A DNA stretch of 64,000 bases from contig JAMPEA010000001.1 in NCBI GenBank assembly GCA_023665365.1, positions 83,914-147,913 of the forward strand, given 5' to 3'. Shown one piece after another: positions 1 to 37,385 of this stretch (positions are counted from its first letter, which is position 1; each line of letters starts with the position of its first letter). Below the pieces are notes generated by a model. It saw nothing but the letters and a program-made list of their open reading frames with translations, was not told the origin of the DNA and ran no database searches. Source of the DNA: Bacillota bacterium (GTDB lineage: Bacteria > Bacillota > Clostridia > Christensenellales > CAG-917). The position numbers were made by a program, and so were the translations under genes.

Positions 1-421
1 AATTGAATAAGTCGCTTTCGATTTCGGGACCCTCGTCTACGCTGAACCCCATGCCGAGAAATATATCTATAAGCTCTCGCCTTATGAGAGTGAGCGGATG
101 AAGCGTGCCGAGTCGCTTTCCATAAGCTGGCAAAGTCACGTCGATTGCTTCCGCTTTGAGCTTTGCCTCTTCCTCCTGCTTTGCCAAAACAGCAGTTTTA
201 TCGTTGAGAAATCCCTCGACCGCCGAGCGAAGTTCGTTTACGAGTTTGCCCATAGCGGGTCTTTCCTCTTTTGGCACGTTTGCCATATCGCGCATGACAA
301 GGGAAATTTCCCCGTTTTTTCCGAGATACTTCACTCTGACGTCGTTAAGTTCCGAAGTTGTCGCAGCCTTATCGATCATGGCTATCGCGCTCAGTTTGAT
401 GCCGTCCAATTTTTCCTTCAT
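1..421 (-). CDS. pheS: Phenylalanine--tRNA ligase alpha subunit, N-terminal part (gene continues beyond the window edge)
   Basis: My own minus-strand translation from ATG 421..419 gives MKEKLDGIKLSAIAMIDKAATTSELNDVRVKYLGKNGEISLVMRDM...GTLHPLTLIRRELIDIFLGMGFSVDEGPEIESDLFN. The KYLGK, HPLT and GPEIE..D..N motifs are typical of PheS. GGAG lies 9 nt upstream. It is absent from the ORF track because the frame is open at the window edge. Confidence 0.85.
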   Translation of the reverse strand, partial: MKEKLDGIKLSAIAMIDKAATTSELNDVRVKYLGKNGEISLVMRDMANVPKEERPAMGKLVNELRSAVEGFLNDKTAVLAKQEEEAKLKAEAIDVTLPAYGKRLGTLHPLTLIRRELIDIFLGMGFSVDEGPEIESDLFN

Positions 422-434
422 TTTGTCTAACTCC

Positions 435-459
435 AAAACGCGCGCATATGCGTACGCGC
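435..459 (-). terminator. Possible intrinsic terminator after the 546..1931 gene
   Basis: Minus strand reads GCGCGTACGCATATGCGCGCG followed by TTTT. The GC-rich stem is about 7 bp and the U tract is short (4 nt). Confidence 0.35.
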
Positions 460-545
460 AAATATTAACTTAATTAAAATAACATTTATAAACGAATAAG
501 TCAATGAAAATACGCCGAGTATGTCGCCGTCGAATAAATATTTAA

Positions 546-1931
546 TCAGTCGTTCGGGATTTTAACGGTAATATCAAGCGGACTGTCTCCGAGTTTAATT
601 TGTTCCACTCCGCTAATCAAGGTGTTTCCGAGATACATTTGCTTTTCGTCGCCGCGCTCGATATGCAAGGTGTTTTTTACGCCGTTTACGTCGAAAATCA
701 CGTCGGCTTTATCTATCTGCTTTGGCAAAGCGGGCATTAAACGCAGTTTTCCTCCGACAGTAGATATGCCGAAATTTACAGTATGATACTTATATATTGG
801 CTCAAAAGTATTCTCAAATTCAAGCATTTTTGAAATACTTTTACCCAATTTTCGTTTTGATTTGATGTTTGGCGCAAAATATAAATCCATAAAGTGCTTT
901 GAGCCGAGCGCAGTTGCAAGCATAGTTATATCTCTTTTGTGATTGATAATGCAGACCATGCGCGAAAGTAAATTTGCTTTTTTGACGCGAATATGCCCTG
1001 CCGACGCGCTCTGCATATATTTTTCGAGTCTTACGGTATATAAAAACTCGTCGAGATTTTCCTTGTCGCTCGCCTCTTTAATGAGCGAAAGAAAATTGCT
1101 TTTGACTATCGGCGCGGCATTTGAAAACACCTCGAATCTATCGAGAATTTCAAGCGGAGTATAGTAACGCGAAAAATCGTATGCTTCCACTATCTTTATA
1201 GTCGCTACTATATTCTTTATCGCCTCGCATATTCTGTCGGTCACTTCGCCGTGAACGTTTGAAAAATATTCCATTTTATAGCCTGCGCACAGCGCGCATA
1301 TACTCAAAAACAGCTTCGATTTGGTTAATTTTTTATATTTTTCATCTAAAAGTATAGGATTATATACGTACTTTGCCGACAGTTTATAGATTTTTGCCAA
1401 CGTGTCGAGTTGCAGATATATATAGCACAGCTTTTCTATTAAAACGTAAATAAACGCCGATTTCATAACGACGATTTCCGAAAACGACAGAGTTTTACGC
1501 TTGTTATGCTCCTCTATTATGGTTTTTACCCTGCTTTCGTCAAACTCATATCCGGTGTGAGCAAGGCAAAATCTCGCTATCTTGACCGCTCGCGGCTCGC
1601 CGTTTATTGACGGCAATTCGTCAAGACAGGTTAAATCGGTTTTTAATAACGTCTTGATTTCCTCTTCGAGTTCGACAAATTTGTCAAAAAAGCCGCAATA
1701 TTTTTTCATCTTTATTTCAAACGCTATCAATTTGATTTTGCTCGCATACTTTTTGGCGTCGGTTTTTCCGCCCTCCTTTGGCAAAGGCAACGAATTTACA
1801 AACTCGGCGGATTTACTTTTGTATTCCTCATCGGTGTATTCGTCAAAATAAAGCGCCCTTATTTTAGGACGCGTAATGAGATATACGCATAAAAAAACTG
1901 CGACAACGGCTATGGATATTGCATATTCCAT
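546..1931 (-). CDS. Hypothetical membrane-anchored protein (one N-terminal TM helix, large soluble domain)
   Basis: 461 aa ORF with an N-terminal hydrophobic helix (ISIAVVAVFLCVYLI). The segment INGEPRAVKIARFCLAH...LSFSEIVVMKSAFIYVLIEKL resembles, from memory, the N-terminal region of cyclic beta-1,2-glucan synthase/GH94-type proteins. No catalytic motif was recognised. Confidence 0.5.
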   Translation of the reverse strand: MEYAISIAVVAVFLCVYLITRPKIRALYFDEYTDEEYKSKSAEFVNSLPLPKEGGKTDAKKYASKIKLIAFEIKMKKYCGFFDKFVELEEEIKTLLKTDLTCLDELPSINGEPRAVKIARFCLAHTGYEFDESRVKTIIEEHNKRKTLSFSEIVVMKSAFIYVLIEKLCYIYLQLDTLAKIYKLSAKYVYNPILLDEKYKKLTKSKLFLSICALCAGYKMEYFSNVHGEVTDRICEAIKNIVATIKIVEAYDFSRYYTPLEILDRFEVFSNAAPIVKSNFLSLIKEASDKENLDEFLYTVRLEKYMQSASAGHIRVKKANLLSRMVCIINHKRDITMLATALGSKHFMDLYFAPNIKSKRKLGKSISKMLEFENTFEPIYKYHTVNFGISTVGGKLRLMPALPKQIDKADVIFDVNGVKNTLHIERGDEKQMYLGNTLISGVEQIKLGDSPLDITVKIPND

Positions 1932-34239: not shown

Positions 34240-34674
34240 TCACCTCGCATTTTTATAGCTTATCAAAATGTGATTGACCGCAAACAAAACAGAAAACACA
34301 ATCAGCGGAATATTTGCAAGCGCTATGCCGCTAAACAAAAATACACACGACGGCAATATTGACAGCGATAAGGCTTTAAATTTGCCGTTTTTATTCCAAC
34401 AAACAATCCAAATTATTATATACGCAAGACACAACCCGCCGTTGACGGACAGATACGCTATAAGCGCGTGGTCAAACCAAAAATCAAAGAAGGTGTACGG
34501 GATATTGAATATCATAAAAACAAAACAGCCGTATCTGCCGATTTGCTCCATTATGACAACCGCCCTATTGCCGAAAGCCTCGGTCTCATCGTCTTTATGC
34601 TTTATGGCGTAAACGATATTGGGTATCATAATAATCGCCATAATCGCAAGCCCGTAATAGTTAAACCAACTCAT
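34240..34674 (-). CDS. Small four-TM membrane protein, unknown function
   Basis: 144 aa, hydrophobic throughout. No family was recognised. Confidence 0.5.
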   Translation of the reverse strand: MSWFNYYGLAIMAIIMIPNIVYAIKHKDDETEAFGNRAVVIMEQIGRYGCFVFMIFNIPYTFFDFWFDHALIAYLSVNGGLCLAYIIIWIVCWNKNGKFKALSLSILPSCVFLFSGIALANIPLIVFSVLFAVNHILISYKNAR

Positions 34675-34675
34675 A

Positions 34676-34987
34676 TCAACGTCTCTTTTTAGGCAAAGGC
34701 GTAACGCTTTCTAAAATTTTCAAAACTTTTTCGGTCAGCTCTGCGTTTTCTATATCCAAAACGTAATGCTCTTTTGAGCCGTCGTAAGGAATTCCGCACT
34801 CAGCGTCCCTCATCAACTCGGACAGTTCTGCGAGCTTCTTAACGTATACAGTGTTGTCGCAAACGAGCAATACGGGTTTATCGTTAAGGTAAACCATATA
34901 TTCTCCGAACATTTTCTTATAGCGCACCGCAAAATCGCCGTGTATTTGCTCGCATACGAATTCAATGTAATCCACGCTTGTTGCCAT
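34676..34987 (-). CDS. TfoX N-terminal domain protein
   Basis: MATSVDYIEFVCEQIHGDFAVRYKKMFGEYMVYLNDKPVLLVCDNTVYVKK matches the TfoX_N pattern. The start is set to ATG 34987 because of the promoter geometry. The 152 aa track ORF overlaps the upstream gene. Confidence 0.7.
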   Translation of the reverse strand: MATSVDYIEFVCEQIHGDFAVRYKKMFGEYMVYLNDKPVLLVCDNTVYVKKLAELSELMRDAECGIPYDGSKEHYVLDIENAELTEKVLKILESVTPLPKKRR

Positions 34988-34993
34988 GTCCAT

Positions 34994-35022
34994 ATTGTAG
35001 CACGCAATAGATACTTTTTCAA
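34994..35022 (-). promoter_or_regulatory. Promoter TTGAAA-17-TGcTACAAT, 6 nt from ATG 34987 (leaderless transcript predicted)
   Basis: -35 at 35022..35017 and -10 at 34999..34994. Confidence 0.5.
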
Positions 35023-35105
35023 CAATTATCTTACTATAAAAACAATCCTGCATATTTGAGGAATTGCTTCGCGCGAAAGAAATTGGTAACCTGCAACAGA
35101 TATTT

Positions 35106-35654
35106 TCATTGCATTTTAGGAATATCCGCTTCAACGTTCTTTTTATTTTTGTTTTTAAAAGGGACGTAAAAGTATAAAAGATACAATGTTAAAAGCAAAA
35201 ACAAGATACCCAACAAAGAAGCGAAAACTATTCCAAACGCCAATGCGTCCCACGCTTTTACGTCTTTGCCATAACTTACCGCCCAACATACGCCTTTTCC
35301 GCGATATACGTTTCCTTTGTAAATTTCCACCTTTTCGCCAATACGCTGTTTGTCTTTTTCATACTGCTCGTAGTTCTTCAATGAGCCTCGCGCACAATCG
35401 CATTCATAAACGATTCCGTTTTCGTCAACGTAACGACACATTATTGAATAGTTGCTTTTTCTATACGTATGCAAATAAGTAATTTCCGCCTCGACGATAA
35501 TCCCATTGTCGACGGCTTCTTGAATTTTCAAATTTTCGGCATAAGCGTTAAATGAAATTGCCGTACCTATTATAAATACCGCACTAACAACTGTTAATAT
35601 TATAATCGCTTTTATGCCGAGAGGAGAAACTTTTTTGTTTGCCGAGTTTTTCAT
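35106..35654 (-). CDS. Membrane protein with N- and C-terminal TM helices flanking a beta-rich domain (DUF3592-like)
   Basis: 182 aa with topology TM, about 100 aa domain, TM. The pattern GIIVEAEITY...Y..M.RYVDENGIVYE resembles DUF3592. This is a weak call. Confidence 0.45.
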   Translation of the reverse strand: MKNSANKKVSPLGIKAIIILTVVSAVFIIGTAISFNAYAENLKIQEAVDNGIIVEAEITYLHTYRKSNYSIMCRYVDENGIVYECDCARGSLKNYEQYEKDKQRIGEKVEIYKGNVYRGKGVCWAVSYGKDVKAWDALAFGIVFASLLGILFLLLTLYLLYFYVPFKNKNKKNVEADIPKMQ

Positions 35655-35689: not shown

Positions 35690-35858
35690 CCATATAGCTC
35701 GTCAAAAAATAAATAGACGTTATAGCGAGTGCTTGATTTTACGAACGCACGGCATAGCCGTGACAAGGCAGTAAGTCTGACTTGTAATATATACCACTAA
35801 ACAGAGGCTTTTTTGGCGAAGAAGTAGTAACCTAAAACGAATAATAAAAAACAGATTT

Positions 35859-36227
35859 TTATAAATTTGACAATTCATTATTAAAGCCTTGAAACCGCAA
35901 AAGAATATTATGCAGTTCGGCTATTTTGTTTTTTAAAAAGTTCATATTATTTTTATGCTTTACAATATCGTTTTTCTTAAAAAAATGATGGGCTAAATAA
36001 TTACGTTTGTCCAAAATGTATTCTAATTCTTCAATATCTTGCTTATCAAATAAATTTGTTCGTTCAGCATATCCTTTAATTTGTCCCATTGTCATAGATT
36101 GCATATCTTCAAAAAGATTATCAGCATTTGTATTTTGTGCTCTACATACTATTAGGGCTAAATTCCATTCTATGTATTGAGCATTTTCCAATATTTCGCC
36201 TACCAAATTATAAATTGTGTTAATCAT
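35859..36227 (-). CDS. Small all-helical HEPN-like protein (Rx4H motif RNYLAHHFF), HepT/DUF86-like
   Basis: 122 aa from ATG 36227 (AAGGCGG 8 nt upstream). The motif is LEYILDKRNYLAHHFF. The gene is AT-rich and lies 13 nt downstream of the 2-TM gene. Confidence 0.5.
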   Translation of the reverse strand: MINTIYNLVGEILENAQYIEWNLALIVCRAQNTNADNLFEDMQSMTMGQIKGYAERTNLFDKQDIEELEYILDKRNYLAHHFFKKNDIVKHKNNMNFLKNKIAELHNILLRFQGFNNELSNL

Positions 36228-36240
36228 TATAAATACCGCC

Positions 36241-36717
36241 TTAATGTAAAATTTTATTTCCAACACGCAATGTATAATTATTAAGCGTTAACGTACCTAC
36301 TTTCAAATTAACTCTTTCACCATTCAAATCGCATTCTAATGGGCGAGCACCAAAGAAAGAGCCTGTATGCTTATCAACTACCGCATCATCAAGCAACAAA
36401 TATGCACAACTCCACCCCAAATAAACACTGATTTCGTGCCCTTGATATGAATATGAATGGAACTTTACTCCGACAAGGGAACACAGCCAAAACACTATAC
36501 AAAAAATATCCCAAGTACCGAACAAATATAGAGGCACGATATACTTATCTTTTGTATAATACCCATATTCTTCTAAATATTCATAATATATGACTTCTTT
36601 ATCATTTATTGCAAGACTAACAAGAATTATAGTTATTATTGCAGAAATTAGGAACAACACGTTCCATACTATTTTAACAGTATTTTTCCTTTTTTGAAAG
36701 CGTTCTTTTTCCGACAT
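36241..36717 (-). CDS. Two-TM membrane protein with a roughly 70 aa C-terminal soluble domain, unknown family
   Basis: 158 aa from ATG 36717 (GAGGTG 8 nt upstream). TM helices are IVWNVLFLISAIITIILVSLAI and LYLFGTWDIFCIVFWLCSLVGV. The gene is AT-rich. Confidence 0.55.
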   Translation of the reverse strand: MSEKERFQKRKNTVKIVWNVLFLISAIITIILVSLAINDKEVIYYEYLEEYGYYTKDKYIVPLYLFGTWDIFCIVFWLCSLVGVKFHSYSYQGHEISVYLGWSCAYLLLDDAVVDKHTGSFFGARPLECDLNGERVNLKVGTLTLNNYTLRVGNKILH

Positions 36718-36744
36718 AACTAAGCACCTCACATATGTATAGTA

Positions 36745-36777
36745 ATATAAAAAGCGTGTTCCACTGAGAAACACGCT
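36745..36777 (-). terminator. Intrinsic terminator inside the 5' leader of the 2-TM/HEPN cassette
   Basis: Minus strand reads AGCGUGUU-UCUCAGUGG-AACACGCU followed by UUUUUAUAUU. It ends about 20 nt before the SD of the 2-TM gene. Confidence 0.6.
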
Positions 36778-36798
36778 GAAAAACGCACCTCTCAATGT

Positions 36799-36884
36799 TG
36801 CGACACATTTCCCAATTTTAAGGCGAGAGTGTACATTTTTACCTATAACACTCCTTAAAACTGGGGATATTCAAATGTGTCGCA
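36799..36884 (-). promoter_or_regulatory. Long imperfect hairpin of about 86 nt in the leader (candidate cis-regulatory or small RNA)
   Basis: A 12 bp perfect outer stem (tgcgacacattt / aaatgtgtcgca) is followed by cccaattttaagg / ccttaaaactgggg and agtgt / acact inner pairings. A possible promoter TTGTCA-17-TTTAAT lies about 25-50 nt upstream on the minus strand. Confidence 0.5.
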
Positions 36885-36939
36885 TATTTACTATGCCACA
36901 AAACTCAATTAAAATCAATCAATTTGATAGTGACAAATG

Positions 36940-36971
36940 AAAAAATAAAAAGCCACTATTTAGTGGCTTTT
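36940..36971 (-). terminator. Intrinsic terminator of tRNA-Ser
   Basis: Minus strand reads AAAAGCCACUAAAUAGUGGCUUUU followed by UAUUUUUU. It lies 6 nt after the tRNA CCA end. Confidence 0.75.
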
Positions 36972-36977
36972 ACATGA

Positions 36978-37070
36978 TGGCGGAGAAGAAGAGATTCGAA
37001 CTCTTGAACCGCTTGTGACGGTTACGCGATTTCCAGTCGCGCGCCCTCGACCAAACTAGGCGACTTCTCC
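36978..37070 (-). tRNA. tRNA-Ser (anticodon GGA), class II with a long variable arm and encoded CCA
   Basis: Minus strand reads GGAGAAG-TC-GCC-TAGTTTGGTCGA-GGGC-G-CGCGA-CTGGAAA-TCGCG-TAACCGTCACAAGCGGTTC-AAGAG-TTCGAAT-CTCTT-CTTCTCC-G-CCA, which folds as a cloverleaf. Confidence 0.93.
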
Positions 37071-37200
37071 AAAAGATTTGTGGAGAAGGCGTCCAAAGGT
37101 TTCACGACTTCTCCAAAGATTTATTGGGAAGTCGTCCAAACGTCCAGCGACTTCTCCAAAGATTTGTGGGAAGTCGTCCAAAGGTCTTCACGACTTCTCC
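37061..37200. repeat. Tandem 43/44 bp repeat (3 units plus the tRNA 5' end); each unit starts with the first 10 nt of tRNA-Ser
   Basis: cgacttctcc recurs at 37061 (the tRNA itself), 37105, 37148 and 37191. The spacers are about 85-90% identical. Confidence 0.95.
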
Positions 37201-37385
37201 AAAGATTGTTTAAAAAAAATGGGTTGCAGTTGAAGGAAGAATGGACAACAAAACCATTTCCCTCAACTGTACATCATTTTGAGGATTTGAACCCTCTATA
37301 ACCCAACGAAAAGATTATATCTTAACGGCGGCGTTTTGACAAGTAATTACGACGATTATTTTGTCGAATTTTGTAAAATTTCGTA

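Follow-up and report, generated by a model that had tools for sequence, protein, structure and literature searches.

The locus described here is a small cassette of two genes that lies immediately 3' of a tRNA-Ser(GGA) gene in a Bacillota bacterium (assembly GCA_023665365.1, contig JAMPEA010000001.1), within a stretch of 64,000 nucleotides (nt) that we call, at its full length, the window. Read along the minus strand, the cassette carries first a gene for a protein with two transmembrane segments (hereafter the membrane gene) and then a gene for a short protein with the Rx4H motif of HEPN ribonucleases (RNases; hereafter the HEPN gene), and ends in a remnant of a tRNA-Ser 3' end. The segment 35794..36977 is a decayed integrated islet of ~1.2 kb at the 3' end of the tRNA gene and resembles a cis-mobilizable element (CIME). 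We hold with moderate confidence that, within this decayed tRNA-Ser islet, the conserved part is the minimal HEPN protein, the membrane gene being an interchangeable passenger. The features on which this reading is built are, in minus-strand order:

36978..37070, minus strand: tRNA-Ser(GGA) gene (ARAGORN; Rfam tRNA, 54.2 bits), integration target and left boundary of the islet
36948..36971, minus strand: intrinsic-terminator hairpin directly after the tRNA, AAAAGCCACTAAATAGTGGCTTTT plus T-run (terminator scan)
36718..36947, minus strand: 5' leader of the membrane gene, ~230 nt
36800..36883, minus strand: long hairpin in this leader, 84 nt
36753..36777, minus strand: terminator-like hairpin in this leader, directly before the ribosome-binding site
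36241..36717, minus strand: membrane gene, 158 amino acids (aa) counted from the ATG
36277..36306, minus strand: promoter-like site TTGAAA-18-AATAAT within the 3' end of the membrane gene, ~50 nt before the HEPN start
35859..36227, minus strand: HEPN gene, 122 aa
35988..36005, minus strand: RNYLAH motif of the HEPN protein, residues 75-80
35814..35842, minus strand: tRNA-Ser 3'-end remnant, ATTCGTTTTAGGTTACTACTTCTTCGCCA, with a T-loop-like part, the acceptor 3' strand and CCA
35794..35813, minus strand: decayed copy of the tRNA terminator hairpin, AAAAAGCCTCTGTTTAGTGG, lacking a T-run and matching 36947..36966 at 90%

An earlier reading of this DNA, made from its letters alone (the sequence-only reading), had reported the two minus-strand open reading frames (ORFs), the 13-nt gap between them (36228..36240), the RNYLAH motif and the adjoining tRNA-Ser(GGA), and all of these are real. 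Mechanical calls extend the ORF of the membrane gene to a TTG at 36795 and that of the HEPN gene to a GTG at 36266; homologues of the former all begin with MSEKERF-like N-termini and those of the latter with MIN..., so that the start codons chosen in that reading match the N-termini of all homologues for both genes. The G+C content is 31.0% in the islet, 32.7% in the membrane gene and 26.8% in the HEPN gene (23% at third codon positions, GC3), compared with 47.8% for the whole window and 51.7% for rho, which reaches 53-56% in 300-nt windows. The 20-30% estimated earlier for the cassette holds for the HEPN gene but is slightly low for the cassette as a whole. Purifying selection acts on both genes, with ratios of nonsynonymous to synonymous substitution rates (dN/dS) of 0.05-0.22 for the HEPN gene, which is therefore maintained, and of 0.07-0.12 for the membrane gene. 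The promoter-like site at 36277..36306, predicted by consensus scan only (10 of 12 consensus positions) and without functional evidence, could allow the HEPN gene to be transcribed independently.

The boundaries of the islet are most easily understood by comparison with relatives. A scan of GTDB representative genomes gave 8 loci, and our census of contexts comprises ~25 sampled ones, without being exhaustive; L-numbers designate the sampled loci. In the window, the terminator at 36948..36971 is one copy of a duplicated tRNA-end/terminator segment, as found by repeat search and by local alignment with 35794..35827, and the tRNA remnant begins 17 nt past the HEPN stop codon, where it forms the right boundary, of the type of an attachment (att) site. 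Of the 14 loci that we inspected, 11 (the window, L030, L056, L034, L035, L029, L032, L036, L005, L001 and L038) have an element of ~30 nt, ATTCGTTTTAGGTTACnnCTTCTCC[A/G]CCA, directly behind the stop codon of the HEPN gene, and this element is also present in L064 and L082. It resembles the T-loop, acceptor 3' strand and CCA of tRNA-Ser, and locus-specific hairpins come next. The tRNA end is repeated together with its terminator much more cleanly in three of the relatives, the direct repeats measuring 33 nt in L001 (32/33 identical, score 29, shuffle maximum 13), 41 nt in L025 (score 33, shuffle maximum 13) and 49 nt in L030 (98%), where they bracket precisely the membrane and HEPN genes. Across relatives, the HEPN gene lies downstream of same-strand tRNA-Ser genes of all four anticodon types, namely GGA (the window, L001, L025-27, L035, L038), CGA (L005, L031), GCT (L011, L043) and TGA (L082), and the content between tRNA and HEPN gene ranges from 63 nt (L011) to ~2.9 kb (L082). 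The tRNA of L038, which precedes a solo HEPN-like gene, is nearly identical to that of the window (1 mismatch).

Acquisition of foreign DNA at the tRNA-Ser gene, proposed in the sequence-only reading, is supported by the low G+C content and by the decayed copy of the tRNA 3' end and terminator at the far edge. As that reading had also noted, no integrase lies within or next to the window cassette (domain search of the window proteins). In L030 and L048-51, an XRE regulator gene and a tyrosine integrase gene (PF00589) stand immediately upstream of the first repeat, and they are missing in L052; this arrangement of integrase and repeats matches the accretion model for CIMEs (PMC5704250). CIMEs and tandem accretion at tRNA genes have been described before (Pavlovic 2004 and Bellanger 2011, as reviewed in PMC5704250). 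The islet shares with them the tRNA 3'-end site, direct repeats of the tRNA end, the lack of an integrase of its own and the presence, in L030 and L048-51, of an integrase-bearing element in tandem at the same att site, variable between strains (L052). By contrast, it is far smaller (~1.2 kb, two genes), its repeats take in the tRNA terminator, with a decayed copy in the window, and it has no conjugation or relaxase remnants; its excision or mobilisation in cis is putative. A scan of viral contigs with a 16-mer of the att arm returned 16 matches, which we discarded as unrelated, all being without the CCA core.

Serial repeats are found in the closest relative, L064. Its positions 1..1330 contain three successive tRNA-3'-end-like repeats (...CTCCACCA, ...CCGTCCACCA, ...CCGTCCACCG) between small ORFs, two of them within a direct repeat of ~90 nt, which looks like the outcome of multiple accretion events at one site.

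The constancy of the tRNA-like sequence behind the HEPN gene raises a different possibility, namely that it acts as RNA. As a 3' untranslated region (3'-UTR) mimicking the acceptor and T arm of tRNA-Ser, it would act on an HEPN RNase directed at tRNA-Ser or at the 3' ends of tRNAs, whether as a decoy, as an RNA antitoxin or as a substrate for autoregulation. Its position, 1-20 nt past the stop codon in the 11 of 14 loci, including the tRNA-free L056, L029 and L034, would fit such a role, as would reports that HEPN nucleases, including HepT, cleave tRNA (PMC11586414; bioRxiv 10.64898/2026.02.22.705581) and that AbiF, another HEPN protein, has RNA antitoxins (bioRxiv 10.64898/2026.02.22.705581). 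Nevertheless, the element holds no more of the acceptor stem than its 3' strand, inspection having revealed no complementary 5' strand. It is ~79-83% conserved between loci (hand count), which is not above the ~70-80% of the neighbouring coding DNA, and long direct repeats that are clean and extend into the host terminator are the trace of site-specific or Campbell-type integration. We therefore consider a function as RNA extremely unlikely, and read the element as the boundary of the decayed islet.

The HEPN protein, the constant part of these loci, has more than 200 close homologues (65-71% identity), mostly in gut Clostridia metagenomes, and one exact sequence variant is indexed in 148 blocks of an assembly collection. 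An exhaustive profile search brought the family to 166 clusters at 50% identity, with distant relatives in four viral contigs. The alignment of 110 diverse members, with a mean column identity of only 18%, shows R75 to be invariant and N76, H80, Q17, E20, G48 and F83 each to be conserved in at least 90% of sequences; R75, N76 and H80 belong to the motif (LDKRNYLAHHFF, residues 72-83), whose R, N and H are invariant within the A5 subgroup. Conservation of the R/H pair among homologues, the check named in the sequence-only reading for its HEPN-like assignment, is therefore borne out even at large distances. Several of the 110 members match HEPN families in Pfam: 19 match PF01934 (HepT-like), 6 PF18735 (RiboL-PSP-HEPN), 4 PF13643 (DUF4145), 2 PF18737 (MAE_28990-HEPN) and 1 PF18730 (Cthe_2314-HEPN). 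The sole member reported over the cut-off is P0200, with 26.0 bits against PF01934 (gathering score 23.5), and in eight of the members matching this profile the motif arginine falls at about profile position 87, as calculated from the ends of the reported stretches. Comparison with hhalign joins the close and distant subgroups at 99.6% probability. Because of the conservation of Rx4H and of these matches of relatives to HEPN profiles, which likewise uphold the HEPN-like assignment, we accept the 122-aa protein as a predicted member of the HEPN superfamily. The family itself is uncharacterised, as expected from the first description of the module as of an undescribed type: NCBIfam and PADLOC assign no family to the window protein, and its only family match, at E 2e-6, is to PHROG 12893 (function not assigned). 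Weak PADLOC matches around the motif, to PD-T7-3, Cas13-ApeA and a CARF-HEPN model, have E-values of 3e-4 to 4e-3, far under family level.

The AlphaFold model of the HEPN protein is all-alpha (pLDDT 94.9). Searches of PDB sequences with three family profiles (A1, A3, A5) returned only coiled-coil and designed-protein noise, and the top TM-score in the Foldseek search of the model against PDB was 0.49, for 1wwp. Among the closest characterized systems is HepT (DUF86, PF01934), which is also a small all-helical protein (both ~120-135 aa), has the RNxxxH at an equal profile position and a conserved QxxE in the N-terminal helix; many members of our family carry the full RX4HXY, and members score up to the Pfam threshold and once over it. 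The spacing of the conserved Q17xxE20 equals that of the Q44/E47 site of a Legionella HEPN protein (PMC11586414). Unlike type VII HepT/MntA systems, however, no MNT nucleotidyltransferase gene stands beside a HEPN family gene in the ~25 contexts, in line with the earlier view of the cassette as unlike the canonical HepT/MNT pair, and the upstream membrane protein of the window has no nucleotidyltransferase match in Pfam, PADLOC or NCBIfam. In addition, the window protein reads RNYLAHHF, with a Phe in place of the Tyr of RX4HXY that in HepT receives AMP from MntA (PMC11586414). The close subfamily reads AHQF or AHHF, and distant members often have H-x-Y (RNYLVHQY, RNDLVHKY). The lack of an MNT antitoxin and the replacement of the AMPylatable Tyr by Phe imply that control must differ from that of HepT/MntA.

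A second group of comparable proteins comprises DARNA (PD-T7-3), ApeA and HepS, HEPN proteins that each defend against phages on their own and have in common with the family studied here a HEPN Rx4H without antitoxin gene and an occurrence in defence islands; for DARNA and Cas13-ApeA, the PADLOC match over the motif region adds to the likeness. DARNA is a HEPN nuclease (R117X4H122) that, once activated, cleaves tRNA, cutting anticodon loops (bioRxiv 10.64898/2026.02.22.705581). These proteins are nonetheless large (DARNA measures 432 aa in the PADLOC model) and have sensor or oligomerisation domains, whereas the 122 aa of the window protein make up a HEPN domain and nothing more. We also considered, in view of the att-proximal position of the gene, that it might encode an excisionase or recombination directionality factor, and rejected this: the model is an all-alpha bundle, no DNA-binding family matches, R/N/H is conserved and the gene persists in integrase-free islets.

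The sequence-only reading had proposed that the membrane and HEPN genes form a two-gene module. Outside the window, the pair occurs in one other lineage only (L030, L048-L055), in which the membrane protein is ~80% and the HEPN protein ~65% identical to those of the window, the gap between the genes is 15 nt (L030) and the DNA homology to the window spans the start of the membrane gene to the att remnant, at ~70-80% per coding alignment block. Elsewhere, the HEPN gene follows one of six other kinds of upstream genes, or none, with spacings from overlap to 16 nt. These are genes for Toastrack/DUF4097-like proteins of ~200 aa (L001-8, L010, L025-28, L031, L042, L043), for a BspA-type leucine-rich repeat (LRR) lipoprotein (L029, L032, L033, L035, L036), for a lipoprotein of 306-349 aa (L034, L056-63), for a PIN7 protein (L082-86), for HsdR (L039) and, in Bacilli relatives, for a membrane-anchored MBL-fold protein; in L011 and L038, the HEPN gene comes directly after the tRNA. 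Reciprocally, five unrelated contexts contain homologues of the membrane gene with no HEPN gene nearby. In L009 it adjoins GNAT and murA/fts genes, in L018/19 it lies between genes for an ArsB/CitMHS transporter and a histidine kinase, in L020/21 it adjoins V-ATPase genes, in L022 it precedes the gene for a 780-aa protein and in L023/24 the spoIIIA operon. Judged by the refuting condition that the sequence-only reading itself had named, the two genes are not co-conserved, and the idea of a fixed two-gene module finds little support.

The membrane protein, for which we found 26 homologues, has two transmembrane segments (~14-40 and 60-86) and a beta-rich C-terminal half according to both hydropathy and the AlphaFold model (pLDDT 85.9), which confirms its earlier description; the model has two transmembrane helices, a short beta-hairpin loop and a C-terminal beta-sandwich. 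No family for it is found in Pfam, NCBIfam, PADLOC or PHROG. Its top Foldseek matches in PDB belong to the PH-superfold (FERM F3, PTB, kindlin PH) and are non-significant (E 0.1-0.7, TM-score at most 0.33). The architecture recalls bPH_2 proteins of the YdbS/YdbT type, in which a two-helix membrane hairpin is also followed by a small, predicted cytoplasmic beta-sandwich, but the protein has no Pfam bPH match and its model lacks the C-terminal capping helix. The leader RNA of the gene is predicted to be very stable (-70.7 kcal/mol, z = -5.45, with none of 200 shuffles equally stable) and has, in order, the 84-nt hairpin (36800..36883), TGCGTTTTTC and the terminator-like hairpin (36753..36777). 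It is homologous, over window positions 36735..36905, to L018 2868..3045, before the solo membrane gene of L018/19, and to the end of L065 (4600..4768), with compensatory changes in both stems between the window and L065. Rfam has no family for this leader or for the att remnant. The leader may represent a regulatory attenuator acting in cis, or else a mobile element that is small and palindromic. The solo copies of the membrane gene, and the fact that its own leader is common to a solo copy, make it a self-contained unit. The L065 copy of the leader is found ~200 nt past a tRNA-Val gene.

Most likely, the membrane gene is thus a passenger and not a fixed partner, acts independently and counts among seven or more genes that can replace one another upstream of the HEPN gene. 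The competing view is that both genes constitute one two-component toxin or defence system, in which the RNase would have in the membrane protein its sensor, its antitoxin or an effector partner, or else that a constant HEPN effector is served by interchangeable, envelope-rich sensors. The short gaps in the window and L030, the retention of the pair in two lineages under purifying selection, the 49-nt repeats of L030 that enclose exactly these two genes and the equally tight coupling of all alternative upstream genes, several of which encode envelope or repeat proteins (lipoproteins, LRR, Toastrack-like, membrane-anchored MBL-fold), would all be in agreement with it. Yet the membrane gene occurs in HEPN-free contexts and brings its own leader, common to a solo copy, intact partnerless HEPN genes follow the tRNA in L011 and L038, the partners have no fold or motif in common, and a cytoplasmic RNase would be out of reach of extracytoplasmic lipoproteins. 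This makes either form of a coupled system rather unlikely in our view. The upstream genes can in any case be dismissed as antitoxins, being mutually unrelated and in some cases secreted lipoproteins, and given that solo HEPN genes exist.

Known defence systems lie beside the HEPN gene in six of the sampled contexts: Shedu, a ThsB-like TIR protein and AbiH in L082, AbiE in L034, a type II restriction-modification (R-M) system in L010, type I R-M (HsdR) in L039, Tmn in L014 and, in L016/L042, an AbiO/Nhi-like gene inserted inside the HEPN gene itself. These neighbours, together with the HEPN motif, make a minimal HEPN RNase with a role in abortive infection or as an addiction gene of the islet the best supported reading, and we regard such a putative role in defence or addiction as likely. 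An alternative is that the HEPN-like gene serves neither in defence nor as a toxin and is a conserved anchor gene at the far edge of a tRNA-Ser recombination hotspot, or a factor for maintenance or regulation of the element, beside which defence genes gather only since hotspots collect them. Such a role would account for the constant att-proximal position of the gene and for the variable content between it and the tRNA, the antitoxin-free solo copies imply no constitutive toxicity, and the arrangement in Bacilli relatives, described below, looks vertical. What makes it unlikely is that strict conservation of R/N/H and strong purifying selection argue for an enzyme, that phage contigs and a PHROG contain relatives, that low G+C and patchy distribution are those of an accessory gene, and that the L016/L042 gene, broken by another defence gene, was dispensable.

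Some of these neighbourhoods contain further genes of interest. In L016 (2868..4894) and L042 (789..2815), the insertion splits the HEPN-like gene after ~42 codons and brings in the AbiO/Nhi-like helicase-nuclease and a DUF4145-like protein of 107 aa, which itself has a motif of this type, RNGIMH. In L039 (4560..5042), just 3' of a frameshifted HEPN-like gene and type I HsdR, a 160-aa DUF6548 protein carries an RNQLAH motif, and DUF6548 may, judging from this motif, represent another unrecognised HEPN-type family. Genes for RNase III-domain proteins occur near HEPN-family genes in two unrelated contexts (L016 895..1725 and L046 293..1384); in L046, a viral contig, an RNase III-dsRBD gene stands directly before the HEPN-like gene. 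Metagenome-assembled genomes of Bacilli/Staphylococcaceae (L012, L013, L015, L040, L041) have a relative of 155-156 aa with an inserted helical segment, the start of which overlaps the end of the membrane-anchored MBL-fold gene and which is followed by two ABC-transporter genes. From its gene order, this MBL-HEPN-ABC arrangement looks vertically inherited, not mobile.

Returning to the account that we favour, in gut Clostridia the HEPN gene is the terminal gene of variable tRNA-Ser-linked islands, abutting a displaced remnant of the tRNA 3' end. Its product would dimerise to build a composite R-N-x3-H active site and would cleave RNA, either tRNA or mRNA. The trigger might be phage infection, leading to abortive infection, or the protein might have an addiction function that stabilises the islet. 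The intact solo copies indicate that the protein is not constitutively toxic.

Several observations weigh against this account. The window HEPN protein itself has no Pfam match (E up to 1), and its membership in the superfamily comes via transitive links. Its model finds nothing in PDB at E <0.7 with Foldseek and no match in BFVD, and the HepT chains in the PDB search have non-significant values (E 1.5-5, TM-score 0.33-0.39). Moreover, the RX4HXY residues of the Legionella HEPN protein were reported to be non-catalytic (PMC11586414), so that the conserved motif is no proof of RNase chemistry, and the 122-aa protein has no obvious sensor domain. No defence gene adjoins the window cassette, the neighbours being genes for a TfoX_N-like protein, GrpB and membrane proteins. 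Upstream genes of all kinds lie very close to the HEPN gene, which suggests co-expression and would be easier to reconcile with functionally paired genes than with mere passengers. No empty site in a relative was reached through homologues of the gene for the 182-aa protein downstream: the att arm is present in L064 too, at the contig end, and L065 is rearranged and non-syntenic. Finally, the far-edge repeat of the window is by itself non-significant, with a local alignment score of 15 against a mean of 10.4 and a maximum of 16 in shuffles, and a gap-free search allowing up to 3 mismatches for a copy of the tRNA end found only the tRNA itself. The tRNA-end/terminator copy claimed in the sequence-only reading is nevertheless present (35794..35842): although degenerate and non-significant on the window alone, it is convincing because the same element occupies the same position in 10 other loci and the repeats of L001, L025 and L030 are clean.

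More speculatively, the locus could belong to a new class of modules, in which a bare HEPN RNase would be the effector or addiction gene of tRNA-Ser-targeting islets, equipped with swappable sensors, for which the two-transmembrane, Toastrack-like, LRR and PIN7 proteins would be the candidates, or with a tRNA-Ser-like decoy or antitoxin in the 3'-UTR, and in which the nuclease would be functionally tied to tRNA-Ser. We deem this quite improbable.

The DNA on both sides of the islet has features of its own. Between rho and the tRNA-Ser gene, positions 37060..37203 hold three to four tandem 43-nt repeats, each with a copy of the tRNA 5' end (minus strand GGAGAAGTCG) and with possible hairpins between neighbouring repeats; they could reflect repeated recombination on the 5' side of the tRNA or be a repeated promoter or terminator element after rho. 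On the other side, low G+C (35-42%) carries on beyond the islet over 34240..35654, which encodes a 182-aa protein with N- and C-terminal transmembrane segments, the TfoX_N-like protein (152 aa) and a 144-aa membrane protein. The contexts of homologues of this 182-aa gene differ, being syntenic in L064 and not in L065, which marks the flank, too, as accessory DNA.

HEPN RNases are among the commonest toxin and immune effectors and, to our knowledge, those known are controlled by an MNT partner, an RNA antitoxin or built-in sensor domains. Both the HEPN RNase and the tRNA-linked islet are known kinds, and the combination found here is a variant of both. The family to which the window protein belongs is a bare domain of 120-130 aa without any of those controls, widespread in human-gut Clostridia and found repeatedly in defence islands. 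Its locus exemplifies very small att-flanked islets arising by decay and accretion, and the layout of tRNA-Ser, variable cargo, HEPN gene and tRNA-3' remnant is a practical guide to new genes for cargo and defence in gut Firmicutes that have received little study. An active protein would raise the question of how a minimal HEPN nuclease stays silent and then fires.

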